A stretch of 64,000 nucleotides of DNA, taken from contig CAWAOA010000007.1 of assembly GCA_963783655.1 (NCBI GenBank), forward strand, positions 55,229 to 119,228, given 5' to 3'. The notes below the pieces were generated by a model. The model was given only the letters and a program-made list of their open reading frames with translations, was not told the DNA's origin and ran no database searches. Positions 12,690 through 58,230 of the stretch are shown here, piece after piece (within the stretch, counting starts at the first letter, position 1; each line of letters starts with the position of its first letter). The DNA is from an uncultured Chloroflexia bacterium (GTDB taxonomy: Bacteria; Chloroflexota; Anaerolineae; CG2-30-64-16). The position numbers and the translations under genes were made by a program.

Positions 12690-13430
12690 ATGCGACTCAC
12701 TCTTAAGTATCAGGAGGTCCGCGTGGTCCCCATTCGAGTGCTCATAGCCGACGACCACGGAATCGTGCGCCAGGGCTTGCGCATGTACCTGAGCGCCGAT
12801 CCGGAGCTCGAGGTCGTGGGTGAGGCCAGTAACGGTGCCGAGGCGGTTGAGCGGGCGCGGCTGCTTGAGCCACAGGTCGTCCTGATGGATTTGCTCATGC
12901 CCGTGATGGATGGCATCAGCGCCACAGCGGCCATCCGGCGTGAATTGCCCAACGTCGAGGTGCTGGCTCTCACCAGCGTTCTCGAAGACGCCTCGGTAGT
13001 TGAAGCCGTACGCGCAGGGGCAACCGGCTATCTGCTCAAGGATACGGGGGTCCAGGATCTGTGCCGGGCAATCAAGGCGGCAGCGGCCGGGCAGGTTCAG
13101 TTGGCTCCGGCCGCTGCAGAGCGCCTGATGGCCGCGGTGAGTGCACCCGTACATGGAGTCGATCATCTGACGGCCCGCGAGCGGGATGTGCTGCAACTGC
13201 TGGCGCTTGGCCAGTCGAACGCCGAGATTGCCGCCTGCCTTGGGATCGCGGAGCAGACTGTCAAGTCGCACGTCAGCCACATCCTCGGAAAGCTAGATTT
13301 GCCAAGCCGAACTCAGGCTGCTCTTTACGCTATCCGCGTTGGCCTCGTGCGGGCCGGCCAACCTTCGTCGCCACCCGAGGGCCGAGCCTCGGCCAATCAA
13401 CGGGGTCCAGGGCAGGCGCGGGCAGCCTGA
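12690..13430 (+). CDS. NarL/LuxR-family response regulator
   Basis: Receiver domain: RVLIADDHGIVRQGLRMYL...VVLMDLLMPVMDG...ALTS. LuxR HTH: LTARERDVLQLLALGQSNAEIAACLGIAEQTVKSHVSHILGKL. The start may be the GTG at 12723. Confidence 0.85.
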   Translation: MRLTLKYQEVRVVPIRVLIADDHGIVRQGLRMYLSADPELEVVGEASNGAEAVERARLLEPQVVLMDLLMPVMDGISATAAIRRELPNVEVLALTSVLEDASVVEAVRAGATGYLLKDTGVQDLCRAIKAAAAGQVQLAPAAAERLMAAVSAPVHGVDHLTARERDVLQLLALGQSNAEIAACLGIAEQTVKSHVSHILGKLDLPSRTQAALYAIRVGLVRAGQPSSPPEGRASANQRGPGQARAA

Positions 13431-13467
13431 CGGCCAGAGGCATCTCAGACATCAAGGGACGCGTGCA

Positions 13468-15584
13468 ATGAGAGACCCGATCCAGAGAGTGGCCTTGATC
13501 TCCGCTGCACTCATCGGGATTGGCGTACTGCTTGCAGGAGTCCTACCCGATCTTCTCTTAGAGGGCGCGCCTCATTTGGCGGTGCTTCACGCCGGTGTCG
13601 GTGTCGTGGCGGCAACCACCGGATACTTCTTCGTGGCCCGGATGGTACACGCTCGCGAGCACATGCGCGCTTCCACCGCTGCGTTGCTCACCGACCTGCA
13701 GTCCCACGAGCGGCTGCTCGCGGAAAACCTTCAGCAAAGAGCTCTACTGGAAGCGATCTTGGAGGCCGATCCTGACGGAATCGCCGTCTTAGCCGGTGGG
13801 GAACTCCGGTATCAGTTGGTCAACTCCGCTCATCGCAGCTTTACCCCGTACCCATCTCTCGATCCTGTCGCCTGCGCTTATGCCGACGTCTGGCGCGACG
13901 CCGGCTGTGTTGAATTGGCGGCTACCCTCCGGCAGGTCGCCGCCGGTGGGGAGCCCGCCGACCTCCAATGTGGAGAGTGCCGCTATCCAGATGGCCGCGT
14001 TTCCTACTTCGACATGCACGTCCGGCGTCTAGAGTGGGAGCAGGGTCAGGCCGTCCTCATAGTCCTCCAGGACATCACGGGTGCTGAAATGGCACGCCGG
14101 CAGGCGCAAGCCGCCACCTTGGAGGCGCAACGACGCGCCGACGAACTCGATGTTGTCTTCGAGGCGATGCTCGAAGGGGTGATCGTGTTTGACGCCAATG
14201 GGACGCCGATTCGCGCCAACCCGTTTGCGGCACGGTTCGTGGGCCACTCGCTGGGCAGCCCTGACCGCAGCGAGATGGTCCGATCCATGAAGCTGCGGCG
14301 TCCGGGTCAGGCATTGATCGAGCCAAACGATCTCCCCTCTGGTCGCGCTCTGCGGGGCGAGAAAGTGAGCGGAGATCGCTTCATCATCGTGGATCCGGAG
14401 GGTCGCGAATTCACGATCATGGCTTCGGCGGCGCCGCTGCTGGTAGGGGACGGGATTACGGGAGCAGTCGCTGTATGGCGTGACGTGACGGAGCTCGAGC
14501 GAACGGAAGACCAGATGCGAGAGGCCCTGGCGGCCTCGCGACGCCGCGAGGCCGAGATTGCGGCGCTACTGGCTCAGCTCGAGACGAGCGAAGAACGCTG
14601 GCGCTCACTCGTGGAGAGCTCCAATGACGCCATGGTCACGCTGAATACCGCGGGGGTGATCGTCTTCTGTAACCGGGCGGCACAGCGGACGTTTGGCTAC
14701 GATGAGGAGGAACTGATAGGGCGTGCGTTTATCTCGTTGCTGGCCCCAGGCGAGGCAGCCGGCCAGGAGGGTGAAACGTGGGAGCAGCGGTACGCCGCGG
14801 CATCGGCGCTCAGCGGGAGGAGTCTCGACGCCACAGGCAGGCGGCGCAACGGCACGGACTTCCCGCTGGAGTTCTCATACGCGCCGTGGCAGACCCGCGA
14901 GGGTGCATTCATCACTGCCGGTATCCGAGACATTACGCAGCGCGTGCAGGCGCGCGAGCGGGCGCAGAGGCTGGCCGCAGTGGAAGAGCGCCAGCGCCTG
15001 GCCCGCGAGCTGCACGATTCGGTGTCCCAGGCTCTCTACGGTATCGCTCTCGGCGCGAACACTGCGCTGACAATGCTCGATAGCAGCCGGGAACGGACGG
15101 TTGCCGCGCTGGACTACGTCATCTCCCTTGCCGATGTGGGTCTGACCGAAATGCGCGCGCTCATCTTTCAATTGCGGCCGGACGCCCTGCAGACGGAGGG
15201 GCTGGTCGCCGGGCTGGCGAAGCACGCCGCGGCGCTGCGAGCGCGCTACGGAACTGCGGTCCAGGAAGAATTCTGCGTCGAGCCAGACGTAGCTCTGGAG
15301 CTCAAAGAGTCGGTGTACCGGATCGCGCAAGAGGCCCTCAACAACGCCGTCAAGCACGCCCAGGCAACCCAAATCGGCCTCCGCCTGGACGCGCGTGCGA
15401 CTGCCTCGAGTTGGAAGTCAGCGATAACGGCAAGGGCTTCGATGCTGCCCGTGCCTTCCCCGGCCATCTGGGCCTGCGCTCGATGCGCGAGCGGGCGCAG
15501 CAACACGGGGGCATACTTGCGATCGACAGCATGCCCGGCGGGGGCACCCGTGTGCGCGCGATTATCCCTCTTCACCCGAGCTAG
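13468..15584 (+). CDS. PAS-domain sensor histidine kinase (HisKA_3, NarX/LiaS type), with one frame change near 15400
   Basis: The N-terminal TM region starts at MRDPIQRVALISAALIGIGVLLAG, followed by PAS-like segments. H-box: ERQRLARELHDSVSQALYGI. N-box: RIAQEALNNAVKHA. After the shift my translation reads CLELEVSDNGKGFDAARAFPGHLGLRSMRERAQQHGGILAIDSMPGGGTRVRAIIPLHPS*. Confidence 0.8.
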
Positions 15585-15745
15585 TTCATCCGCTTCCCCA
15601 TATCTACGGACATGTTCCGCTCAACGGCGATTGACTTCAAACCTCAACACCGTCTTCGCCATGGATAGTAAGACGTGCTACAATTAGCGTGGCCACCTGA
15701 AAAAAATGCCCGAACAAGGCTTCGACCCACCGGAAGGAGATCAAC

Positions 15746-24231: not shown

Positions 24232-26405
24232 TTACCAGCGCGTAAGCTTGGTGCCCGGCGGTACCCCTTCAAGCATGCCTTGCGGCGAGACCTCGATGGT
24301 AACGCCCGGCAACGCCAGTTGCTGCCTTGGGCTGCCGAACACGAGCAACTCCTCCAGGGAAGCGCGTCCCGCCAACTCCCCTGTGTGCTGTACGGCGGGA
24401 CCGAGGGGTAGCATGTAGCCCTCGCGCCCGTATACCGGGAACCGGTCCATGGACACGGTGGTCTCGAGTTGCCTTCCGCCTTCAATTCGCTCGCCGGACC
24501 ACAGGTCGTACCACCCTCCTGGCGGCAGATAGAGGCGCACGGCGCCGCCGGGCTGCAGCACAGGCGCCACCAGGAGCGCGGGGCCCAATAGGTACTGCTC
24601 CTCGAAGCTCCACGCTAACCGGTCGTTCGGGAAGGCCAGCGGCATCGCCCGCATCACAGGCAGCCCGCATTGGCTCGCTTCAACGCGCACGCCTGAAGGT
24701 AGGGCAGCAGGCGATATCGCCATCGCAACCAACTCCGAACGATCCCCTCTGCCTCCTCGCCGAACAGCCACGGCTCAGCGCGGCGTGAGGCCGTGGAACC
24801 GGGTATGGGATGAGAGGACGCCGGCCTGCATCCAGCGGACGTAGAGCTCGGGGCTGGGGGGCGGCTCGCGTAGAAGCCCCCGATGTCGTGCGCATAGAAT
24901 GGCACGCCGCTCATCCCCCAGGAGAGACCACCGCGGACGCTCGCGGCCAGACCCTCCCAATCGCCCTGAGGGTCTCCACCCCATTGCACCGGATATCGCT
25001 GGCTGCCCGTCCAACCGGCTCGCGACCAGACGACCGGTGACCCCTTCGCGTACATTTCGGTAGCCTCGAAGATGCAGCGGTTGTACAACAGCGCGTAGAC
25101 GTTATGCAGCCTCCGTCCGGAATCGCCGTTGAAGGCAACGACGTCAGGCGGAACGGCCTCGCCGTAGTCCGGCTTCATGACGGCTACACCGATCTCAAAG
25201 AGGGCGCGGTGCTGGTCACGGAACCAGTTGTACGCGTCCGGGTTCGTGAAGTCGATGATGCCGCTGGGCTGTAAATGGGGCAGCGACTGGTCGAACGGCG
25301 GCGGCAGCCAGCGCTGAACAAATGGCTCGCCCGACGCCTGGCGCAGCAGGAAGCCCTGGCTCGCCAGCCAGTTGAAAAGCGGGTTCAGGGTCGATATATA
25401 GGGATATTCCCACAGGCACAACCTGAGGTTCAGATCCTTGAGCCGGGCGATGGTCGCAGCCGGGTCCGGGTAGCGCTCGGGGTCCCATGAGAAGTCGAAG
25501 CGCGTCTCCGATCGATGCCATGCCCGGCCGTCCAGCAGCATCACATCGCAGGGGATTTCGTGAGTGCGCAGCTCGGTAGCTGCTTCCAGCAGCTCTTCCT
25601 CCGTGCGATAGAATGCCCGGCCCATCCACACTCCGTAACTCCATTGAGGAGGCAGGGGTGAGCGCCCGGTAAGCTGCGTGAATCGCTCGAGGATCTGCGC
25701 CGGGTCGGCGCCGGTTATCAGGAAGACGTCCAGGACCGGATCTTCCACCTGGATCACGTATGAGCGGTGCGACCACGGCGCGTAGCCAACGGCGTGGGTT
25801 ACGCGGCCGGGCGTATTTACGAAGAGCCCCCAGCCCTCTGGGCTCCACGCAAACGGCATGTTCTTGTAGGACCGTTCGGCATTGACACCGGTCGCGTCGT
25901 AGTTCCATGACGTAATGAGTTCGCCGCGATGATTCAGCCGCCCGAACTTCTCGCCCAGTCCGTAGACCGGCTCGCCGCTGCGGAGCGCAAAGGCCATCTG
26001 CCATGCACCCGCGCCCTTGGCCAGAGTGGGAAACCGGCTCATCCCCAGCATCCCCTCATCGGTCACCGATTCGAGGATCGGGCGGTTGCCTAGCAGGAGG
26101 CGGAAACGGACCGGCGAGGGCATCACCTCCAGGGTCACATCGCCTGCGCTGAGGACGACCCGGTCGCCGCGCTGTTCGGCGGAAGCGCCCGTGTCTCGTG
26201 GCCCGGCGGCGAGCAATCCGTAGTCGATACCGGCTGCGGGCTGGCTTTGAAAACGAAGAACCCCCGGGGCGTAATACGACAGGTCAAATGCCCCGTATGG
26301 GGTGATAAAGCGCATTCCCCCTTCGATCGCCGGTCCCGGCGAGAGCGAAAGGATCGCCCCGAAGCCCTCCTGGGCACGTACAGATTCCTGGTCGACAAAC
26401 GACAC
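24232..26405 (-). CDS. Glycoside hydrolase family 31 (alpha-xylosidase/alpha-glucosidase type), with frame change(s) near 24700-24800
   Basis: PLPPQWSYGVWMGR, IPCDVMLLDGRAW, GVAVMKPDYGEAVP (nucleophile-Asp region), YPVQWGGDPQGDWEGLAASVRGGLSWGMSGVPFYAHDIGGF. The C-terminal beta-sandwich lies in ORF 24232..24771. Confidence 0.85.
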
Positions 26406-38697: not shown

Positions 38698-39941
38698 CTA
38701 CTGGCGCCACTTGCCGGCCATGCTCATGCGCGCCGGCAGCGGCAGTTCCTGGCCCTTGAGCAGGATGTTCCAGTACATCCAGCGGAACATCATCTTGCCC
38801 CAGTGGTTCATCTCGGATTCCTCGAGCAGCGTGAAGGGACCGACGCCGGGCAGCGGGTAGCGGCCGGGCAGCGGCTCGACGTCGTAGTTGAAGTCGATCA
38901 GCAGGCCCTTGCCGAAGCCCGACTCGATGAAGCAGTTGGCGTGCCCGTCGAAGGTCGGCAGCAGCTCCAGCCCGTCGATGTAGCGCAGGAAGTTCTCGGC
39001 GAAGACGTCCACGGCGAAATGGGCCACCGAGCCGGCCTTCGAGGTCGGCAGCGTTGGCGGCGTCGCCCAGCACGAAGATGTTGGCGTACTTGGGCGACAG
39101 GAAGGTGTGCTTGTCGACCGGGACGTAGTTCAGCTCGTCGCCCAGCCCCGAGCGGGCGATCACCTCGGCGCCCATGTTGAGCGGGACGCTCACCAGCAGG
39201 TCGTACTCGCACCTCCTGCTCGTCGTAGGACACGATCTTCTTGGCGTCCGGGTCCACGTGCTCGATCATGAACTCGGGCACCACCTTGATGTTCTTCTGT
39301 TCCAGGATGTCGCCCAGGTGCTTGGAGGCGATCGGCTTGGTGAACGCGCCGGGCAGCGGCGTGGCATAGATCAGCTCGACCCGGTCGCGGATGCCCTGCT
39401 CGTGGAAGAACCAGTCGGCCAGCATGAGGAACTCCAGCGGCGCCACCGGGCACTTGATCGGGTTCTCGACGACGTTGACCACCAGGCGGCCGCCCTGCCA
39501 GGTGCGCAGGTGCTTCGCCAGCGCCAGCGCGCCCTTCGAGGGTGTAGAAGTCGTGGATCGACTTGCTGCCACTCGTGCTCCTGCAGCCCGGGGGTCTGCT
39601 CGGGGTGCGTCTGCGCGCCGGTGGCGATGACCAGGAAGTCGTAGTTGAGGTAGCGGCCGTCCTTGGCCAGCTTCACCCGGTTGTGGTCCGGCTCGATCGA
39701 CCTCGATGGGCGACATGATCAGCTCGACGCCGGCCGGGATGAAATCGCGCTTGGGCTTGACCACGTCGTTCTTGCCGTAGATGCCGAACGGGATGAACAG
39801 GAAACCCGGCTGGTAGTAGTGCTGTCTCGTGCTGGTCGACGATGGTGATGTGCCACTCGTCGTGATCGAGCAAGCCGGTTGAGCCGGTTGGCGACCATCG
39901 TGCCGGCCGTGCCGGCGCCGAGGATCAAGAAGCTTCTTCAT
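38698..39941 (-). CDS. FAD-dependent pyridine-nucleotide-disulfide oxidoreductase, sulfide:quinone-oxidoreductase type, with at least 5 frame changes
   Basis: Reconstructed from ORFs 39719..39928 (ILGAGTAGTMVANRL), 39673..39873, 38898..39941 (YYQPGFLFIPFGIYGKNDVVKPKRDFIPAGVELI; NPIKCPVAPLEFLMLADWFF; IYATPLPGAFTKPIAS), 39371..39676 (YDFLVIATGA), 38612..39193 (VSVPLNMGAEVIARSGLGDELNYVPVD, IFVLGDAAN) and 38698..39027 (AHFAVDVFAENFLRYIDG...FDGHANCFIESGFGKGLLIDFNYDVEPLPG). Confidence 0.75.
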
Positions 39942-40755
39942 GTGCTATCCCTCCTTGCTCGTAAATTGGTTCTATAGTGACGGTCAGCACGGCGATCGGC
40001 TTGCAGCCGGTTGATGATGAGCTCCGGTCTTCTGCAATGTGCGAGAACACGTCGGCGATCCGCTGGACAAATCGAAGCACCCGGGCACGTTGCTCCGCGT
40101 CGAGATGGTGGACGGCATCGCAGTGAGCCGCCAGATATGCAGTCTCGGCCCCTGCTTCCTTTGCCGCCTCAGCCAGCTGTTCGCTGCTCGGCGGCCAGTT
40201 GTCTGGGGCGATGCAACCGGCCACGACAAGGCCCTTCAACTCGCTACCCTGGCGGATCAGACCGCGGGCACACAGCAAGCCCAACTCATTGGTGGTGAAC
40301 CGGGGTTCGAGCGAGATGGCATCTGCCATTTGTTGCCAGGTACGCATGCAGCCCGCCCAGCCGGAACCGGTGTGCTCCGTAACCGCCACGAAGAGGCCGC
40401 TGGGATTGCTTACCTGAGTAACCGGTTGTCCTTGCATGTCGGTGACGACGAGCGCGCACTCCAGCATTTCCGCAAAGGCATCCTGAATCAGTTGGACGCA
40501 CGCAAGTGGGAGGATCTGGGCAAGAGACGCCGGCGCCGCGGAAGCCGAATGCGCCGGCGGTGCGACGGGCGCCGGATCGACTGCCGGCAGTGCGCCCTGT
40601 GTCTGCATCCAACGCCCCAGCTCTTCCTTCGAGAAACGCCATTGCTTTCCGACCCGAATGGCCGGCAAACGGCCATCGTCGATCATCCGGTAAATCGTCG
40701 TGCGGTCAACCTGCAGCAGGTCCTGGACCTGGCGTGTGGTGAGTAAGTCGGCCAT
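39925..40755 (-). CDS. Transcriptional regulator: excisionase/MerR-type HTH plus PocR sensory domain
   Basis: LLTTRQVQDLLQVDRTTIYRMIDDGRLPAIRVGKQWRFSKEEL, then LIQDAFAEMLECALVVTDMQGQPVTQVSNPSG...LLCARGLIRQGSELKGLVVAGCI (PocR-like). The 3' end may be frame-shifted, and it overlaps the SQR start. Confidence 0.7.
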   Translation of the reverse strand: MADLLTTRQVQDLLQVDRTTIYRMIDDGRLPAIRVGKQWRFSKEELGRWMQTQGALPAVDPAPVAPPAHSASAAPASLAQILPLACVQLIQDAFAEMLECALVVTDMQGQPVTQVSNPSGLFVAVTEHTGSGWAGCMRTWQQMADAISLEPRFTTNELGLLCARGLIRQGSELKGLVVAGCIAPDNWPPSSEQLAEAAKEAGAETAYLAAHCDAVHHLDAEQRARVLRFVQRIADVFSHIAEDRSSSSTGCKPIAVLTVTIEPIYEQGGIAHEEAS

Positions 40756-41112: not shown

Positions 41113-43793
41113 CTATTGTTTTCCGGGCAACGCCCACACGTCAAAGCCTTGCGTGTTCGCGGCCACCAGCAGGCTCCCGTCGGGCGAGAAAGCCACCCAC
41201 TTCGTGGCGCCCGCTCCGGATTTGAGCGTCGTCACCTGGTCGCCCGTAGCAACATCCCAAATCTTCACCGCCGTCTCGCCGGTCGTTGCCAACAGCTTGC
41301 CATCCGGCGAGAACGCTGCGTCCGCTGCGGAGGTCTGCTGGATCTCCATCATCATGCGCCTGGTTTCGGGTCGTAGCACGCGAACGGCGTTGCCGGTAAC
41401 CGAAGCGAGCCGGCGCCGTCGGGCGAGAACGCGATGGCTTTCAGGTCCGTGCGGCTGTCCAGTTGCACGGGCTCATCAACCGCTCCCAGGTCCCATAGCT
41501 CCACTCCGAGGACGCCGGCCGCCGCCAGATGGCTGCCGTCAGGCGAGAAGGCCACCCGTTTCACGGTCTGCGTCTTCCCGGGGAGCGTGTCGATCTCCTG
41601 CGAGGCCGGCGGGGTCCAACAGCTTGGTGACCATGCCGGTCCCGGCCGCCAGCAGGCTGCCGTCAGGTGAGTAGGCGAGGCTCTCGACGCTGCCCGAGCA
41701 GACTTGCTGGAAACCAGCTCGCCGCCGGTGCGCGGGTCCATCAGGCTTGATCCCCTCGCCGGTTCCGAGTGCAAGCGCTTTCCCGTCAGGCGAGAATGCC
41801 ACGCTCAAGACCATATCGTTCGACTGCATCTGTCGACCGGCCTACTCCGGCGGGCATGGTCCACAATGAGACTGTGTTCTCGACCGTCACGAGCTGCTTG
41901 CCGTCGGGTGAGAATTCCAGCACTCGCGAGTAGGGACTGCTGGTAGGCAGCGCCCGGCGCTCCAGCTGAGCGACGTTGGCCGCCGTGATCGCGGAAGGTG
42001 ATAACGGCACAGGCGCTGCGCGCGGGCCGGGCGGCTGAATCACTCTCGCGACACCGTTGCCGCTGGCAAGCCCCCAGATGCGAACGTCGTCGCCTCCCTG
42101 GCCGGCCGACGCCAGCAGCGTGCCGTCGGGAGAGAACGCGACGGCATCCACCCACGCCGTGTGTCCGCGCAGGCTTCGCAACCCCTCGCCGGTGGCCGCG
42201 TCCCATAACCGCACCGTCAAGTCTCCGGATGCAGTGGCCAACAAGCTGCCGTCTGGCGAAACCGTCACGCCACTGACCGGTTTGCCGTGGCCGGTGAATG
42301 TCATCGACTGTTTCCCGCTTGTGACATCCCACAGTCGTGGCTGCGCCATCCATAAGAGGAAGCTGCGAGCGATCTGCTGTCCGGCGAGAACCTCACTTCC
42401 GTGACTTCGCCTCCGGGAACGGCGAGGGCGCGCGGCGCGGCCGCGCCGTCAAGCTGTGTGGATTTGAATGTCGCTTCCTGCGATCGCCAGCCACTTGCGG
42501 TCGGGCGACCAGGCCAGCGATTTGAGCATATTGGTGTTACCGGCGAGCGTGTCCAACTCGCGGCCGCTCTCGACGTCGAGCAGGCGCACCACGACGCCCG
42601 AGATCGCTGCAAGGCGCTTGCCGTCGGGAGGAGAAGGCCAACCGGCCCGCATCCGGAACATTGGCGAAGGTCACAACCTCACCCCCCGTCGACCGGCATT
42701 GCGTACCCATACCTTGTCCCCGGCCGCCGCCGCCAGAAGCTTGCCGTCCGGTGAGAAAGCTACACCGCCCGACCACCCGCCTGTGTCCAGCTTGCGCTTC
42801 TGCTTCCAGCTCTGAGCCTCATACAGCTCGATCTCGTACGATGCGACCGCCAACAGACTTCCGTCCGGCGACCAGGCCAGCTGCTGGGCCATCACAGTCG
42901 ATCTGCGCTACTTGGGCGACCTGGCCAACGTTGGCCGCCGAGATGGCGCTGCCGGCGACTGCCGGCGCCCCCGGGGAAGCCGTCTGTGCGGCCGCTGGCG
43001 CACGAGTCGCCGCGATCGGAGACGCCGGGAGCGCCGCGGCTACACGTGGCGTCGTGGTACCGACCGGAACGGCGACCGGGGCGGGTGATGTCTGAGCCGG
43101 ACGAGCCGTCGCCGGTGACAGGGATGTCAGGGATGAGGGAGCGGCTGGCGAAGCCCCAGCGCCGGCGATGACCGGCGCTGACAGGGTAGAGGTCGGGGCC
43201 GGCGCGACGCTTCGTGTGAGCCACCACCCGCCGGCCACCCCCAGCAGCGCCACGACCGCAATCACGGCGATGGTCCATAGCGGCACCCTGCGCTCTCGCC
43301 CCGGGAGCGAGAGCGCTCGCCCGGCCGGCGGAGTCTGTTGGACGCTCTGGGCGGTCGCTGCCGGAGCCGAGGTGCCAGGATCGCCTGTCTCGCCGCCAGC
43401 AGTGCGCTGATGCTATCGGAGAGCGTTTGCAGGTGCTTCTCCAGGGGAGGAGTCGGCGCGTCCAGCCAGTGAGGGACACTGATGAGATACTCCATCGACT
43501 TGGACGGTGGGATATCCTGGATACGAAATGGGACGAGCGGGATCCCCTTACTCACGGCTCGCTCTACCTCGCGCATAACCTGGGGCGACGCGTTGGCATT
43601 GGCCGAAAAGACGAGTACCATCACGCGGCTGCTGTTTATGGCATCGATGATCGCTTCCCCGTAGGGCACGCCCGGCAGCACATCGCGGTGGCGCGATCCA
43701 GCAGCGGATGCCGCGCCCCTCCAGGATCGCGCAGGCCGCGTCGGCGGTGACCTTGTCCTGGTTGGAATAGCTGACGAATACATCGTGCGCCAT
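41113..43793 (-). CDS. TIR-domain / single-TM / ~14-blade WD40 protein, with many frame changes
   Basis: TIR domain: MAHDVFVSYSNQDKVTADAACAILEGRGIRCWIAP (ORF 43548..43826), then RDVLPGVPYGEAIIDAINSSRVMVLVFSANANASPQVMREVERAVSKGIPLVPFRIQDI (ORF 43262..43783). My translation links this to PGTSAPAATAQSVQQTPPAGRALSLPGRERRVPLWTIAVIAVVALLGVAGGWWL (TM, ORF 42819..43286) and a P/A/S/T linker. Repeated (A/V)(F/W/Y)SPDG..LA blades with LWD/IWG strings then follow in ORFs 42671..42895, 42449..42661, 42301..42612, 41786..42349, 41539..41829, 41352..41774 and 41113..41379. GAAGGA lies 8 nt before the ATG at 43793. Confidence 0.75.
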
Positions 43794-43883: not shown

Positions 43884-46420
43884 TCACTGCATGCGATAGA
43901 TCTCGAATTTCGCAGCGGCCAGGAAATTAGGAATCGCCCGCACCGTCTGGCGGTCCCATTCCTTCACCTCGTCGGGCAGGTCGGCCCACGGAACCAGGTA
44001 AGGGGATACCTTCCGCTCGATGTTCTTTTCGGGGCCGTAGACCCATCCGGCCAGCCGGCGCTCGCTTACCCACCGGTCATGCTCGATCTCGGCCAGAACC
44101 TCGAGCTCGACCGGCGTGAACACGAAGGCACGCGGATCGGGGCTGGTCACGGGGCCGAACCCGCAGCCCACACGCCGCAGCCTGGCCGGGATATCGTCGG
44201 CCTGCCGGCGGTTGGAATCTTTGAGCCCCGCGTCAAGCTGGTCCCATGGTTGCATGGATGGGTCGGAGTCGGGGCGCTTGCCACGCTGCTCCTCGCGAAA
44301 CGCCTGGTGGATCGCTTGGGCCAGGGTCTCACGCGACGCCCCGAACAGCACGTCGCGCACCACAAGACGGGAGAAGACTTCGTCGTCCACATGCAGCCGC
44401 AGCTGCTCCCGGGGCGGCAGGCAGGACGGCTCGAAGCACGATTGCCCCTGGAGCATGCTCATGTCCAGAATGGCTTCCATCGATCGGGCGCCGTGCTTGT
44501 AGAGGGGGACCTTGATCAGCGCTCGCAGCACGCCGTCGTCAATGCGGGCGCGCTTCTTACTGTCGAGCGGGAAACCCACGTTGCGCTCAATCATCGACCG
44601 GAGCAACATGGCGCGGCGGATGATATAGGCGAAGTCAGTGTCACTGACGGGGTTCGGGCCCATGATATTGACATAACCGCGCAGCCGGCTGGTAAAATCC
44701 GGGCCCTTCACCTTTCGGAAAGCGTCCAGGGCGCCGGCGCGTGCCTCGGGGGGTACATCCTGGCGGCAAAACGCTTCGAAGCTCGCACAGGTGCCCCCGG
44801 CAAAGATGAAGATCGACTTGCCGATGGGGTGCACCGCCTCGCCGTCGCGAAACTCACCGTCTTGCATCGGCGCCAGGAAGTACTTCAGCCAGCCAAGATC
44901 GCCCTCGAAGCCGGAGTCGAATTCGTCAAAAAACACCAGCGGCACAATGCCTTTCAAGGCCAGATCTCGCACCCGGTGGAATGCGCTGATGAGATCGACC
45001 GGCGAGCGGAACTGCGAGAGGTTGAACTCGATTTTGACCACGCGATCGCCGCCGATGCTCTTGGCCACCTGCGTTACACCAAAGGACTTGCCGGAGCCTG
45101 GTGACCCGAAGACCGCCAGCGAGAGCGGACGTGCAACCTGCGCCTCACCGATGTACTGCTGCATCAGGTTGTGAATGCTGCGGAAGCTCTCGATCTCGGC
45201 CCGATCGACCGTTTTGAGAGCGCCGAACTGTCCTACCGGCACCCCCTTCATCGCAGCGGTGTTCCCCTCCTTGACGATCGCATAGGCGATGTCTTCCAGG
45301 ATGCTGCCGTTGACGTCCTGGAGGATGCACCAGTACGTGGGGTCGGCCGGCTCGGTTGCCACCGGATTGGGAACCACCACGTCGGCGAGGTAATCGCCCT
45401 CAGGCGCGAATATCCTGGGGTCGGGGAACGACAGGACTCTCCATCTGCGTCCCGTAGCCCAACCTGAGCAGCTGTTGGGCAGCACGCAGTCCCGACCGGA
45501 TCCCCTCGCCTACGGATGTGCCGGGCGCGGGCTCGTCCGCGTCAGGACCGGCAAGGCGAGCCGCCAGGGCTGCCGTGAATGCGGAGGCGAGTCCTTGCAT
45601 ATCCCCGGCGTAGCGGGCGTGATAGCCACCTTCGGGCTGCGCCGGGTCGAAGTACAGGCGCGCCTGAACGCCCTCCCGCGATTGCCGGTAGTAGATCGCG
45701 GCCTCGAGCCCGAAGCGCACGATCAGATGCCGGCAGTTGGCGAGCGCGCTCAGGGAGGGGTTGCAGGACATCTGCCAGACGAATTCTTTCGCCGTCCGCT
45801 CCCAGGAGAGGCGGCGGCTGATGTTGACGCCGCCCGCCCGAAGGCCGTCGGCGCTGATCACCACCACCAGACGGTCCGCGTGACAGCAGCGCAGGTGATC
45901 CCATAGCAGACCCGTGGCTACCGGCCGGTTCATCTTGTAGATCACGAGTGGCCGGCGCTCGTCGCTGCGAATGGCCAGCGGCCAGAGCGAGGGGAGCGAG
46001 CGGAAGCCGTTGCCGGCATCGTCCAGGATCACGAGAGCCGCGGCCGGGTCGTCGTCGGGCACGGGCCGCAAGCCGGGCTGGCCCCGATGACGGGCCCACG
46101 TAGCCTCGGAACTGCCTGACCCGGTAAACGGGCTTGTCTTTGCTCTTGGGGTCGCTGAAGAGAGCCAACTCGACATTTGAGTGCAGCACTTCCTCGGGCG
46201 AGATCATGGCCAGGCCGTCAAGGCGGGGCGCCAGCACCGGCAAGCCGGTGGTGATGCGGACCATCTCTGCGAGCAACAGGGCGCCACCCGGCACCGGCGC
46301 CATCCGCCCGCCATCATACAATTCCCAGTTCAAGCCCTCATCGTGCTGTCTGGTTGGCCACTGCAGCCAGTCGATGCACAGATCGCCGGTAACGACGATG
46401 TTTCGCCCTTGACCATCCAT
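43884..46420 (-). CDS. Three-part protein: ribokinase(PfkB)-like N-domain, AAA+ ATPase, and two tandem RyR-type repeats. Frame changes near 46090 and 45440.
   Basis: N-domain (ORFs 45542..46420 and 45400..46176): NIVVTGDLCIDWL, PGGALLLAEMV, LVILDDAGNGF, ADRLVVVISADGL, HARYAGDMQGLASAFTAALAARL (compare the PfkB GAGD..aa tail). AAA+ (ORF 43884..45485): Walker A LAVFGSPGSGKSFGV, Walker B PLVFFDEFD, IFIFAGGT. RyR-like repeat 1: LAQAIHQAFREEQ...MQPWDQLDAGLKDSNRRQADDIPARL. RyR repeat 2: LEVLAEIEHDRWVSERRLAGWVYGPEKNIERKVSPYLVPWADLPDEVKEWDRQTVRAIPNFL. Confidence 0.75.
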
Positions 46421-46439: not shown

Positions 46440-47162
46440 CTAATGAATGCCGGGTATGCCCACCCGATAGAAATACATCATGTGCTCACCATTCGAGCTC
46501 GGGAAACGCTCGAACGTGACTGTCCCTTGCTCGTCACCCAGGCTGACCGGCTGCTCGCTGCCGGGCTGGCGGTTACCGGCATGGACCCATGCTAACGGCA
46601 GGCCGCGTCGCCGCGCCTCCGAGACGACCCAGCCGGTCCCGCCGGCTCCCTGGGGCGGCTGCCCATCCCAGACCGCCAACAACACATCACAGTGCGCCAG
46701 AATATGCCGCCCCGCCGGCTTCGTAGGCCTGCTCGTGGCCCGCACCGCCGCCGGCCCGGACGACCTGAACAGCCCGGGCAAGCAAATCGTCCGGGCCGGC
46801 GCCAGAGCAGGTAACCATGAGATCGGATCGACTATCCGGCTCGCCGGGCGGCAGTACGGCAATCAGGACGGCGCCGGGGCGCATCAGCACGCTGCTCGAG
46901 CGCCTAACCGGTCGGCTCCGTCAGCCAGGCAGCAAATCGCCGCCAGCGGAACAGTGGGGAAGGCAACCTCGATTGCGGCAATGGCCTCATCCAGTCCCTC
47001 TGTCACCCGGTCCACGCCTGCCAAAAAGCGATGTCCTGTAATACCGATTCGGGCATAGGTCGACCTGGCGACCGGCGTGAACGTCACTTCGGGCGCCGCC
47101 GATCGTTGGCGCATAGCGCGGCCGGCATCCCGCAATACCTGCGAAGCGAGACGCGTTGTCAT
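46440..47162 (-). CDS. SLOG-superfamily (DprA/LOG-like Rossmann) protein of about 240 aa, with frame changes near 46890 and 46700
   Basis: ORF 46884..47420 from the internal MTTRLASQV (ATG at 47162): ARIGITGHRFLAGVDRVTEGLDEAIAAIE...LAAICCLADGADRL. ORF 46687..46890: AVLIAVLP. ORF 46440..46862: HCDVLLAVWDGQPPQGAGGTGWVVSEARRRGLPLAWVHAG. This is a strand / Gly-rich loop / helix pattern like LOG PGGxGTxxE. Assigned by motif only. Confidence 0.5.
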
Positions 47163-56154: not shown

Positions 56155-57570
56155 CTACAGCAGGCCTTCGGCAAACCGCAGGAAGCGGCACACATCTGCA
56201 AAGTTCGTCACCATCCCCACCGAGATGCGCACGGCACCTGAGCTCTTTCCATCGATGCACAGCCGGAAGTCGTCCAACGTCAGGTGTTGCGCCGGCTGGT
56301 TGAAGCAGGCGACCAGCTCGAGCTGTGACAGCCCGAGGGCGACCTCACCGGCGCCGGGGTTACAAAAGCAGCCCGTCCGCAGTGAGATGTTGTCTGCACC
56401 GGCCTGCTGCTCGATCACGCGGTGGTCGATTGGCTGCCCGGCGCTGTCGTAGAAATTGAGTGCCAGGGTGCCGCCCCGCCAGCTCGTATTCGGGGGACCG
56501 TACAGGCGCACGAGGGGCCGGCCGCTTCGGTGTCGAAGGGCAAGCAGCCCGTCGAGCATCCAACCGGTAAGGCAGCGTACTCGCTCGTGAATCGATTCCA
56601 GCCCGATGGCCTCGATGTGTCTGAGGCCAATTTCTACCGCCGGCAAATTGAGATAGTTGACCGTGCCATCTTCAAACGCCGCTTCGCTTTCCGCCAGATA
56701 GTAGCGGTCCCCCTGGACCGAGGCAACAGTGATGGTGCCGCCGGCAAACCAGGGGCGGCGCAGTTGGGCGAGCGCGTCCCGGCGAGCGATCAGGCAGCCC
56801 ACACCGGTTGGATAGCCGAACATCTTGTAGAACGAGATCGACACAAAGTCGGGATGCCAGCGACTAAGATCCATTCGATTCGTCGGGACAAAGGCAGCGG
56901 CATCCAGCAGCACCGTCCATCCCCTCTTCTGGGCCGCGGCGATCCAGTCCAGCGGATGCTGCACCCCAGAAAAGTTGGATTGTGCCGGATAAGCGAAGAG
57001 GTTGTGGCCGCCTGGCCTGGCCCGGTCCAGATAGTCAGCCAGGCGCTCCTCATCCACGCGCATCTCAGGCAGCATCACCGGCACGTAGGTCACGTCAGCG
57101 TGCCGTGTACGTGCGAACTCGCGAATGCCGTTGACCGAATTGTGATTGTCGAAGGTCAGCAAGTATTGATCGTCCGATTCGAACGGAAAAGACTCGCCCA
57201 CCAGTTTGAGGGCCCCACTTGCGTTGGGGGTGAAGATCGCGACATACTCATCTGGCGACGCGCCGAAGTACTCGAGCACATAGCTTCGCGCCTGCTCAAC
57301 CAGAGTCGTCGTGGCGCTCGAAGTGGGGTTGGAGGAGTGCGGGTTGCCAAAGACGCAGTCGTTGAGCAGCCGGGTGTGCTGCCTGATTTGGGAGAGCGCG
57401 TGCAGGCCGGCTCCCGTGTAATCGAGATATACCTGGCCGCACGAATCCAGGCGCGCATATTCGGTGGCGCGCAACTCGTCAAGGTGGCGCGTGGATTCGA
57501 ATGCCGGATAAGACCGCACAAAGGCAGCCAGGTCTGCCGGTAAATGGCCCGCGTTATCGAGTTCGCGCAT
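56155..57570 (-). CDS. Class V aminotransferase-fold enzyme, molybdenum-cofactor-sulfurase N-domain-like
   Basis: LDELRATEYARLDSCGQVYLDYTGAGL, VFGNPHSSNPTS, FAYPAQSNFSGVQHPL, LLDAAAFVP, DFVSISFYKMFGYPTGVGCLI (PLP-Lys region), LRTGCFCNPGAGE. The likely start is the internal MRELDNAG at 57570. Confidence 0.8.
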   Translation of the reverse strand: MRELDNAGHLPADLAAFVRSYPAFESTRHLDELRATEYARLDSCGQVYLDYTGAGLHALSQIRQHTRLLNDCVFGNPHSSNPTSSATTTLVEQARSYVLEYFGASPDEYVAIFTPNASGALKLVGESFPFESDDQYLLTFDNHNSVNGIREFARTRHADVTYVPVMLPEMRVDEERLADYLDRARPGGHNLFAYPAQSNFSGVQHPLDWIAAAQKRGWTVLLDAAAFVPTNRMDLSRWHPDFVSISFYKMFGYPTGVGCLIARRDALAQLRRPWFAGGTITVASVQGDRYYLAESEAAFEDGTVNYLNLPAVEIGLRHIEAIGLESIHERVRCLTGWMLDGLLALRHRSGRPLVRLYGPPNTSWRGGTLALNFYDSAGQPIDHRVIEQQAGADNISLRTGCFCNPGAGEVALGLSQLELVACFNQPAQHLTLDDFRLCIDGKSSGAVRISVGMVTNFADVCRFLRFAEGLL

Positions 57571-58230
57571 TGGATCTCTGTCCTTGGGGTAGCCGGTGGC
57601 AGACTGCCGATCCCCGGATTGGCTCAGGAACGCTGGGTGGGGTTGCCGGATGCAGCAAGACGAAAGAGCACCAGTACGCGCTGACACCACCTTCTAAGCC
57701 ATTATCGTCGAAAGCGTGCGAGAGAGCTATTCTCAGCAGCCTCTGTACTTGGACGTGCGTGTGGGAGCAACAATTCGCCCGCCAGCCAGAATTCACCCGC
57801 CCCGCAACACGGCCGGCGTGCCCGGTAGAACCTGTCCGGCGCGCTTGGCGAGCTGGTGATACGAGGCGGCATGGTTTCGTGAAGCAGTCTGGTAGTACAA
57901 TACGGATCATCGAATCGAAGGCCAGCGCTTCACTGAGCGCGAGTGATTTCCTGAACTGCGCCACGAGAAACGCTGCGGGAGATCTCGTCTTCAAGGCGGC
58001 GACTTCGCCAAACGGTCGATTTATCTGGCCCGGCGGAACAGACTGCGCTGACGCCAGTTCACCTGGGGGTGGAGAGCTAAATCGACGCGCCGAACCATTC
58101 TTCTTCGCTTCGTCTCTGAAGAGCCAGGTTAGTCTGGCCACCAGACAGGGCCTTCTGTGCAAGGTGGGCGGACCATGCTACCGGCCTGCCACGTAAGGCC
58201 GAACTATTTGTCACCGGCATCATGGAGTGA

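Follow-up and report, generated by a model that had tools for sequence, protein, structure and literature searches.

Can a bacterial TIR domain be coupled to a sensor that lies outside the membrane? This question is raised by a gene on the minus strand of a 64,000-nucleotide stretch of DNA from an uncultured Chloroflexia bacterium (GenBank assembly GCA_963783655.1, contig CAWAOA010000007.1), the whole of which is called the window below. The gene encodes an N-terminal TIR domain, a hydrophobic helix, a stalk and a large array of WD40 repeats, and an earlier reading of the letters by themselves (the sequence-only reading) had proposed a receptor with the TIR domain in the cytoplasm and the repeats outside. 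Here this layout emerges as a well-supported prediction. Judged from sequence and gene neighbourhood, we give a probability of roughly 0.55 to the reading that the gene belongs to an outward-sensing, Thoeris-like signalling module whose TIR protein is itself the membrane-spanning receptor.

The protein was reconstructed from the open reading frame (ORF) listing and a three-frame translation; joined in order, the pieces give ~878 residues, from an ATG at 43793 (MAHDVFVSYS) to a stop codon at 41115-41113. Pfam TIR_2 matched residues 15-121 of the reconstruction, which are residues 5-111 counted from MAHDVF (E 1.2e-17), placing the TIR domain at the very N-terminus as had been proposed. No family member carried a signal peptide ahead of the TIR domain, the first residues being TIR strand A. 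Among the 25 best Pfam families in the reconstruction, TIR_2 alone fell outside the β-propeller/WD40 matches, and the WD40 match itself reached E 1e-56. Fourteen blades of the xxFSPDGxxLA type follow with a period of ~120 nt in two groups of seven, each group headed by an I[ST]AANVxQ[VL] strand (ISAANVGQV at 42944 and ITAANVAQL at 41989), in agreement with the two seven-bladed propellers expected behind a P/A/S/T linker.

Between the TIR domain and the propellers, PLWTIAVIAVVALLGVAGGWWL gave a 19-residue Kyte-Doolittle mean of 2.35 and was the sole such segment in the reconstructed protein. The Arg-rich stretch GRERRV precedes it in the same frame, and flank, helix, stalk and first propeller-closing strand together occupy one unbroken frame (43376-42900). 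Two ways in which the helix might be spurious were considered and rejected. An artefact of a wrong frame join, which would have undone the sequence-only reading, was set aside because the other frames are not protein-like, one containing four stops and the other being an Arg/Gly-rich shadow frame, and because a helix occupies the equivalent place in intact homologues. An artefact of a GC-rich shadow frame was dismissed likewise, since the helix frame also encodes the conserved propeller-closing strand.

The conservation of the helix was examined in three samples. A protein search with the N-terminal 371 residues returned 2,831 proteins at E<=1e-5, and in the best 120 of these a hydrophobic 19-mer was present in 114, nearly always single, at residues 155-250 and just after the TIR domain. 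A genome scan with one genome per species gave >600 matching stretches; at the best 80 loci, the TIR proteins of 69 carried the helix. Of 129 diverse representatives clustered at 50% identity, 90 possessed it too. Anchoring in the membrane is the norm in this TIR subfamily. The anchored TIR-WD40 layout of the sequence-only reading was therefore upheld, though it is no rare oddity.

The charges around the helix point in the same direction. Across 108 homologues, the 15 residues on the TIR side contained a mean of 3.95 Lys+Arg, compared with 1.61 in the 15 residues after the helix; the TIR side was the richer in 88 homologues and the poorer in 11, and the window protein itself has 4 and 1. The positive-inside rule thus places the TIR domain inside, as had been anticipated. 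Furthermore, the propeller is replaced in relatives by PPC, DUF1080, FGE-sulfatase, trypsin-like, LRR, Sel1, TPR, DUF4189 or T9SS-tail domains. Such domains mostly lie outside the cytoplasm. Taken together, the missing signal peptide, the Lys/Arg bias and the extracytoplasmic-type domains in the position of the propeller lead to a predicted topology, well supported, with the TIR domain inside, a single membrane helix and the propellers outside, i.e. type II (N-in, C-out).

Structure models were made of two intact relatives, P0017 (TIR domain) and P0001 (full layout). The AlphaFold2 model of P0001 (mean pLDDT 85.6) showed a TIR domain at residues 1-136, a disordered stretch, a helix at 170-189, disorder at 191-236 and a 28-strand propeller, in which the AlphaFold blade count suggested with the original proposal came to seven. 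The receptor-like layout is consequently supported in silico by helix conservation, charge bias, the ectodomains of the relatives and the P0001 model.

Two further loci bear on the ectodomains. A 1,027-aa protein at L058:9373-12453 joins a TIR domain of a different subfamily (SDVFISYSRKD...) to long WD40 arrays, with a hydrophobic helix around residue 250, so that the TIR-helix-WD40 layout is not confined to this subfamily. At L086:5851-9522, the gene order is TIR-helix-WD40, TIR + FGE-sulfatase-fold and bAvd. bAvd is an accessory protein of diversity-generating retroelements, and its presence may mean that some of the family's ectodomains undergo hypermutation.

The TIR domain has the features of a catalytic type. 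The window TIR is 76% identical to that of P0017, and the AlphaFold2 model of P0017 residues 1-150 (pLDDT 88) matched plant (RPP1, RPS4, RUN1), SPARTA, MAL, SARM1 and AbTir TIRs in Foldseek, each with probability 1.0 and with query-normalised TM-scores of ~0.65-0.76. The conserved Glu that had been pointed out in SPQVMREVERAV is Glu75; it is invariant in all four family alignments (A1-A4), is located in the helix after strand C of the P0017 model, and aligned in a profile search with the Glu of S-x-W-x-x-x-E in TIR-STING, TLR1, TLR2 and TLR6. Its distance from the preceding Ser is what we take to be the spacing of the plant catalytic motif. From this motif spacing, rather than from a residue-level structural alignment, Glu75 is probably equivalent to SARM1 E642 and RUN1 E100.

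A second motif, the BB-loop Box 2, is preserved as well, with R36 and P40 invariant or nearly so in all four alignments and D37 and G41 in most. The RDxxPG form of this loop is typical of animal TLR, IL-1R, MAL and MyD88 TIRs and is usually absent in prokaryotes (PMC7075850). Its retention in the family explains why the solved structures closest in sequence are those of animal TIRs, the top PDB matches being oyster TIR-STING, Hydra TRR-2, TLR1, TLR2, TLR6 and MAL. Tandem arrangements also occur in the subfamily, top-scoring representatives (P0121-P0139) having 2 to 5 TIR domains per protein.

If the TIR domain makes a signal, the genes beside it are the first candidates for its readers. SLOG-like, AAA-RyR and TIR genes lie on the same strand in that order, with gaps of 19 and 90 nt. 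Two ORFs listed as a 339-aa unknown and a 533-aa AAA+RyR protein were recognised as one ~880-aa gene by tblastn with the neighbours of related loci; those of L073 (883 aa) and L006 (884 aa) cover 46405-43893 in three frames (E 1e-154 and 5e-136). The encoded protein consists of an N-terminal domain of no recognised family, an AAA ATPase and two RyR repeats, and its first ~340 residues gave no match in Pfam, NCBIfam, PADLOC or PDB sequences. The RyR repeats were found by Pfam (E 7e-14, 52 bits with a cut-off of 27.4), by local hidden Markov models (HMMs; E 2e-13 and 2e-27) and in a PDB search, where the Repeat12 region of RyR1, RyR2 and RyR3 matched at E 2e-18 and Bacteroides 3NRT at 1.6e-8. 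The homology to the neighbours in L073, L006 and L058 extends over the whole length of the protein. Proteins of this kind, 880-920 aa long, are recurrent neighbours of the TIR-transmembrane genes in Chloroflexota (L073:835-3486, L006:2675-5329 and L058:1323-4085).

The first gene of the cluster is SLOG-like. The middle third lies in another frame, and the apparent stops disappear once this is corrected. The product has the motifs IGITGHR, ADGADR and CDVLLAVWDG..GGT, matched local HMMs at E 6e-18 and 1e-11, and is homologous to the L073 gene at position -2 and to the N-terminal halves of SLOG-like/SLATT proteins. Profiles of the SLOG clan gave sub-threshold matches, namely YAcAr in 5/16 members (best E 0.003), DprA and YpsA. 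An hhalign comparison of the SLOG-like profile with an LSDAT-bearing neighbour was negative, and the domain had no match among PDB sequences. Fusion to SLATT in relatives supports the putative SLOG assignment. On the other side of the TIR gene, ~360 nt downstream on the same strand, lies an intact gene for a regulator with HTH_17 and a PocR sensory domain (39925-40755).

Table 1. Coordinates of the TIR gene, its parts and its upstream neighbours in the window.
Feature	Position	Strand	Basis or remark
TIR - membrane helix - stalk - 2x7-blade WD40 gene	41113..43793	minus	three-frame translation; Pfam TIR_2, WD40
TIR domain, residues 1 to ~136	43382..43793	minus	one frame change after WIAP at 43688
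BB-loop Box 2 motif RDVLPG (RDxxPG)	43670..43687	minus	family alignments
Glu75 codon, putative catalytic Glu	43568..43570	minus	first Glu of REVERAV in SPQVMREVERAV, 43588-43553
Arg-rich cytoplasmic flank GRERRV (predicted side)	43284..43301	minus	same frame as helix
Single predicted transmembrane helix PLWTIAVIAVVALLGVAGGWWL	43218..43283	minus	hydropathy
P/A/S/T-rich stalk, ~90 aa	42945..43217	minus	translation; equivalent stretch of P0001 predicted disordered
Propeller 1: closing strand ISAANVGQVAQVAQI + blades 1-7	42059..42944	minus	blade motifs, WD40 Pfam matches
Propeller 2: closing strand ITAANVAQLERRALP + blades 8-14	41116..41989	minus	translation, blade motifs
Frame changes, TIR/helix part	near 43688; 43290-43415	minus	
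Frame changes, propeller 1 (n=5)	~42895, 42693, 42629, 42457, 42347	minus	
Frame changes, propeller 2 (n=5)	~41836, 41745, ~41703, ~41605, ~41415	minus	
AAA-2xRyR gene, ~880 aa	43884..46420	minus	tblastn; frame changes near 46075 and 45445
Two RyR repeats (PF02026)	43896..44336	minus	Pfam, local HMM, PDB search
SLOG-like gene, ~215 aa, first of cluster	46440..47114	minus	>=2 frame changes

The same kinds of genes recur beside the TIR gene elsewhere. Three genes on either side were clustered in the best 80 loci of the genome scan and then searched with local HMMs. SLOG-like domains were found at 18 loci, SLATT at 15 and RyR at 11, the union being 26/80, and SLATT_1 in the neighbours scored above the NCBIfam cut-off. 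In seven of the loci (L007, L010, L014, L021, L023, L055 and L070) the gene immediately upstream, in the same orientation, is of the SLOG-like/SLATT kind, and 43-93 nt separate the end of its SLATT domain from the start of the TIR gene; these genomes span at least four phyla, including Chloroflexota, Thermodesulfobacteriota, Armatimonadota and Ca. Dadabacteria. The order found in the window, SLOG-like, AAA-RyR and TIR, matches the clusters in L073, L006 and L058.

The RyR partners take several forms: N-terminal hydrophobic segments with TrkA_N and RyR (~610 aa), an unassigned domain with AAA and two RyR repeats (~880-920 aa), RyR with TPR-S, a SLOG-like domain and a cyclase (765 aa), and RyR with SLATT. 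Neighbours of 765-775 aa at L063:7633-9930, and also in L071 and L056, join RyR, TPR-S and SLOG-like domains to an adenylate/guanylate cyclase domain, an arrangement that would place several putative nucleotide-sensor modules on a single output enzyme. Among the WD40-type relatives, those closest to the window protein, four of the six with a usable contig had a RyR-domain gene within 7 kb. According to precomputed annotations, RyR proteins of ~845-850 aa lie near P0007, P0009 and P0011, an 832-aa RelA_SpoT-RyR protein and NUDIX near P0010, RelA_SpoT with a weak LSDAT_prok match and NUDIX near P0003, and SLATT with a faint LSDAT_prok match near P0011. DUF4062 genes occur within a few kb of the WD40-type TIR genes of P0007, P0009 and P0010 (L084 and L085 are among these contigs), and additional TIR genes occur near P0007 and P0009. 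One such DUF4062 is fused to a NACHT-TPR protein. DUF4062 is a TIR-like NADase family according to a 2026 preprint.

Thoeris has been expanded to eleven types, in which effectors with SLOG, Macro, SLATT or other domains detect a cyclic ADP-ribose (cADPR)-type signal made by a TIR protein; type VII pairs canonical cADPR with a SLATT effector, type III uses a SLOG effector, and TPR-S is predicted to participate in TIR signalling (10.64898/2025.12.03.692087). RyR-domain proteins of phages, homologues of RyR Repeat12, have been shown to bind or cleave 2'cADPR and 3'cADPR (PMC13232231). The SLOG-like, SLATT and RyR neighbours therefore belong to domain classes with a known ability to bind TIR products or react to them, and for TPR-S the same is predicted. 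Because these neighbours recur, we infer that a signalling role of the TIR domain is likelier than bulk NAD+ depletion. Where the sequence-only reading had an intracellular NAD-consuming domain, the neighbours suggest synthesis of a signal molecule rather than simple consumption of NAD.

The following scheme would account for these features. The product would be a type II single-pass protein with a catalytic-type TIR domain in the cytoplasm and a flexible P/A/S/T stalk holding two WD40 propellers outside. The propellers would bind an extracytoplasmic ligand, for which a phage part, an envelope fragment or the surface of another cell are candidates, and binding would cluster the receptors and bring their cytoplasmic TIR domains together. 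TIR enzymes need mutual assembly for activity. Once assembled, the TIR domains would turn NAD+ into a cADPR-type nucleotide signal, which may be read by the two proteins encoded upstream, the SLOG-like protein and the 880-aa AAA ATPase with two RyR repeats. In other genomes the reader may be a SLOG-like/SLATT membrane effector or a protein with hydrophobic segments, TrkA_N and RyR. The domain order, the conserved helix, the charge bias, the TIR fold with its invariant Glu, the propeller fold of a relative and the recurrent gene neighbourhood are direct results, whereas the topology, the enzymatic activity, the nature of product and ligand, the reading of the signal by the neighbours and an anti-phage role are inferred.

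Several points weigh against this scheme. Real frame changes, 12 in the TIR gene, would mean that this organism has no working copy of it. The SLOG assignment draws on Pfam matches below threshold and on sequence motifs, the window partners have no recognisable killing domain, and SLATT was not found in the window. PADLOC found nothing for the neighbouring genes of the window and matched the TIR protein weakly, over partial stretches (ThsB, E 6e-4 and 1e-2; SAVED_TIR, 7e-7). About two thirds of the 80 loci lack SLOG-like, SLATT and RyR domains within 6 kb, and some gene contexts are plain housekeeping. Finally, the conserved Glu and the RDxxPG loop occur also in animal adaptor-type TIRs.

The first of these points concerns the state of the gene. 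All the features named in the sequence-only reading were found where it had placed them on the minus strand, but the assembled gene is broken: 12 frame changes, an extreme number, fall between 43793 and 41113, i.e. within 2.7 kb. The TIR-to-helix join needs one between ~43415 and 43290 and the helix-to-blade join another near 42895; in the plot of GC at third codon positions (GC3), the P/A/S/T stalk is too noisy for an exact placement of the former. The shifts cluster at 38.9-47.1 kb, where the TIR gene has 12, the AAA-RyR gene two, the SLOG-like gene two or more, and a nearby gene resembling sulfide:quinone reductases (38898-39941) at least four. Many long genes outside this region are intact with full-length Pfam coverage, e.g. 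13339-15687, 24654-26405 and 56155-57690. The GC3 phase plot also has many short runs at ~7.9-12.7 kb and 51.5-52.4 kb.

A decayed cluster, in which the frame changes of all three genes are real and the whole module is inactive in this organism, would explain why the indels are mostly confined to 38.9-47.1 kb while many other long genes of the window are intact, and why the junctions fall outside long homopolymers; indeed, neither a common sequence motif nor a long homopolymer was found at the indel sites. However, the 878 reconstructed residues cross no in-frame stop, all 21 family-invariant residues are preserved, the apparent stops of the SLOG-like gene vanish after frame correction and the adjacent sulfide:quinone-reductase-like gene is shifted several times too, whereas real decay with ~16 indels would be expected to leave many substitutions as well. 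The absence of stops, the invariant residues and the similar shifts in the two upstream genes and the sulfide:quinone-reductase-like gene suggest that the indels are errors of an assembly that is poor in this region, or that decay set in very recently. We regard indel errors in a poorly polished local stretch as the likely cause, and true pseudogenes as a somewhat unlikely one.

Should the gene be functional, its TIR domain might still act without the neighbours. On this account, TIR domains clustered by a ligand bound outside deplete NAD+ to kill or arrest the cell, neither a signal molecule nor a partner protein is required, and the SLOG-like and RyR genes belong to other systems of the island. 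Plain depletion of cellular NAD+ is how SARM1 and many bacterial TIR effectors act. The invariance of Glu75 and the catalytic-type fold agree with such an effector, as do the loci that lack partner domains, and TIRs in unverified configurations may indeed be NAD-depleting effectors (10.64898/2025.12.03.692087). The tight, same-strand adjacency of SLOG-like/SLATT genes in seven genomes argues against it, as does the recurrence beside the family of four kinds of signal-sensor domain, SLOG-like, SLATT, RyR and TPR-S; we consider a stand-alone effector unlikely.

The size and spread of the family bear on whether the receptors serve immunity at all. Clustered at 50% identity, its representatives number 65,977 at E<=1e-3, 20,643 at E<=1e-10 and 8,688 at E<=1e-30. 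The genome scan placed members in Chloroflexota, Acidobacteriota, Gemmatimonadota, Alphaproteobacteria, Planctomycetota and Verrucomicrobiota, and also in Armatimonadota, Abditibacteriota, Myxococcota, Bacillota and some metagenome-assembled genomes (MAGs) labelled archaeal; the gene clusters most similar to that of the window are from Chloroflexota, at ~43% identity. Several paralogues with differing ectodomains can occur in one genome, as on the same-MAG contigs L018/L079, L023/L028, L050/L055 and L038/L056.

A family so large and spread across soil phyla, with multiple paralogues per genome and ectodomains of the lectin-like or repeat-binder sort typical of environmental sensors, could instead serve ordinary outside-in signalling, with members acting as receptor 'ADP-ribosyl cyclases' and translating cues from the environment or from other cells into a nucleotide messenger. 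Such a messenger would act on ion flux (TrkA_N-RyR), nucleotide metabolism (RelA_SpoT, NUDIX, cyclase) or an ATPase, in keeping with the TrkA_N-RyR, RelA_SpoT-RyR and RyR-cyclase partners and with the many housekeeping contexts. The SLATT partners, in contrast, are known cell-killing effectors, and relatives lie among DUF4062, NACHT, extra TIR genes and a diversity-generating-retroelement accessory gene, all typical of conflict islands, which makes a role apart from immunity decidedly unlikely in our estimate. A non-enzymatic scaffold, recruiting other TIR proteins through TIR-TIR contacts as in animal TLR/MAL, would suit the best PDB matches, the animal-type BB loop and the additional TIR genes near several loci, but with the Glu invariant and partner domains that bind nucleotides rather than TIRs it is highly improbable.

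The outward-sensing, Thoeris-like reading, which we favour, matters mostly for the family and its partner genes rather than for the damaged copy in the window. In the papers on TIR defence consulted here, cells respond to infection by a phage, and within the limited literature searched we found no description of a surface-receptor TIR, i.e. of a bacterial TIR receptor with an outward sensor domain, nor of this family, although it comprises thousands of 50%-identity clusters from many phyla of soils and sediments. If the sensor does lie outside the membrane, bacteria could couple cell-surface events such as phage docking, envelope damage or contact with a neighbour to NAD-derived signalling, and a TIR receptor of this type would be, in function, the nearest thing bacteria have to a Toll-like receptor. 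The recurrent association with SLATT, SLOG-like, TPR-S and RyR-repeat proteins supplies concrete, testable partner pairs, and the RyR link touches the old question of how cADPR-type molecules are recognised by ryanodine-receptor repeats. A bolder extension, which we hold to be doubtful, is that these proteins are transmembrane receptor ADP-ribosyl cyclases that convert an extracellular ligand into a cytoplasmic cADPR-type messenger for host RyR-repeat proteins, including TrkA_N membrane proteins; the pathway would then prefigure both the architecture of Toll-like receptors and the animal axis from cADPR to the ryanodine receptor, with the RyR repeat as an ancestral cADPR-binding module.

Comparison with known systems places the window protein between several of them. 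Prokaryotic metacaspases with CHASE2 or FGE-sulfatase domains have been described as cytoplasmic effectors with membrane helices and an outward receptor domain (PMC3501461). The predicted layout of the window protein, with its cytoplasmic effector domain, membrane helix and outward receptor domain, is alike; the metacaspases, however, have a protease head instead of a TIR domain and no link to NAD-derived signalling. Soluble bacterial TIR-STAND/NLR-like proteins share the N-terminal TIR domain and C-terminal WD40 repeats, whereas the window protein has a membrane helix and a stalk with no NACHT/NB-ARC between. A STAND/NLR architecture was rejected, since the Pfam search found no NTPase and the P0001 model shows a helix and disordered linkers in its place.

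With Toll-like and IL-1 receptors the window protein would share a single passage through the membrane, a repeat-built, ligand-binding ectodomain and a cytoplasmic TIR domain with an RDxxPG Box 2. Unlike them, it is a predicted type II protein with an N-terminal TIR domain and no signal peptide, the ectodomain of its family is WD40 (or PPC, DUF1080, Sel1 and others) rather than LRR or Ig, and its partners are nucleotide-sensor proteins, not death-domain adaptors. With the domain order reversed and WD40 instead of LRR outside, membership of the Toll-like receptor family itself was rejected. The RyR repeats of the upstream gene, homologous to Repeat12, have the same fold as phage RyDEP, which binds or cleaves the TIR-made 2'cADPR and 3'cADPR. 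In contrast to RyDEP they are encoded by the host and joined to an AAA ATPase (or, in relatives, to TrkA_N, RelA_SpoT, SLATT or a cyclase), and their position beside a TIR gene suggests that they sense or regulate and do not serve counter-defence by a phage.

The closest resemblance is to Thoeris. In both, a TIR protein with a catalytic-type Glu is encoded in operon-like fashion beside SLOG-like or SLATT proteins, partner classes that in Thoeris respond to TIR-made cADPR-type molecules; of the genes for signal-binding or effector domains that are expected to adjoin the TIR gene in Thoeris, the window has the SLOG-like and AAA-2xRyR genes. The differences lie in the TIR protein of the window, a predicted transmembrane receptor with a large variable ectodomain that PADLOC ThsB models match weakly, and in the host AAA-RyR and TrkA_N-RyR partners, which are not among the effectors named for Thoeris; the same text names transmembrane helices for effectors only, never for the TIR protein (10.64898/2025.12.03.692087). 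What appears to be new here is therefore a Thoeris-like logic built around a putative type II membrane-receptor TIR with a variable ectodomain, which resembles Toll-like receptors in its predicted logic and in its BB-loop motif.

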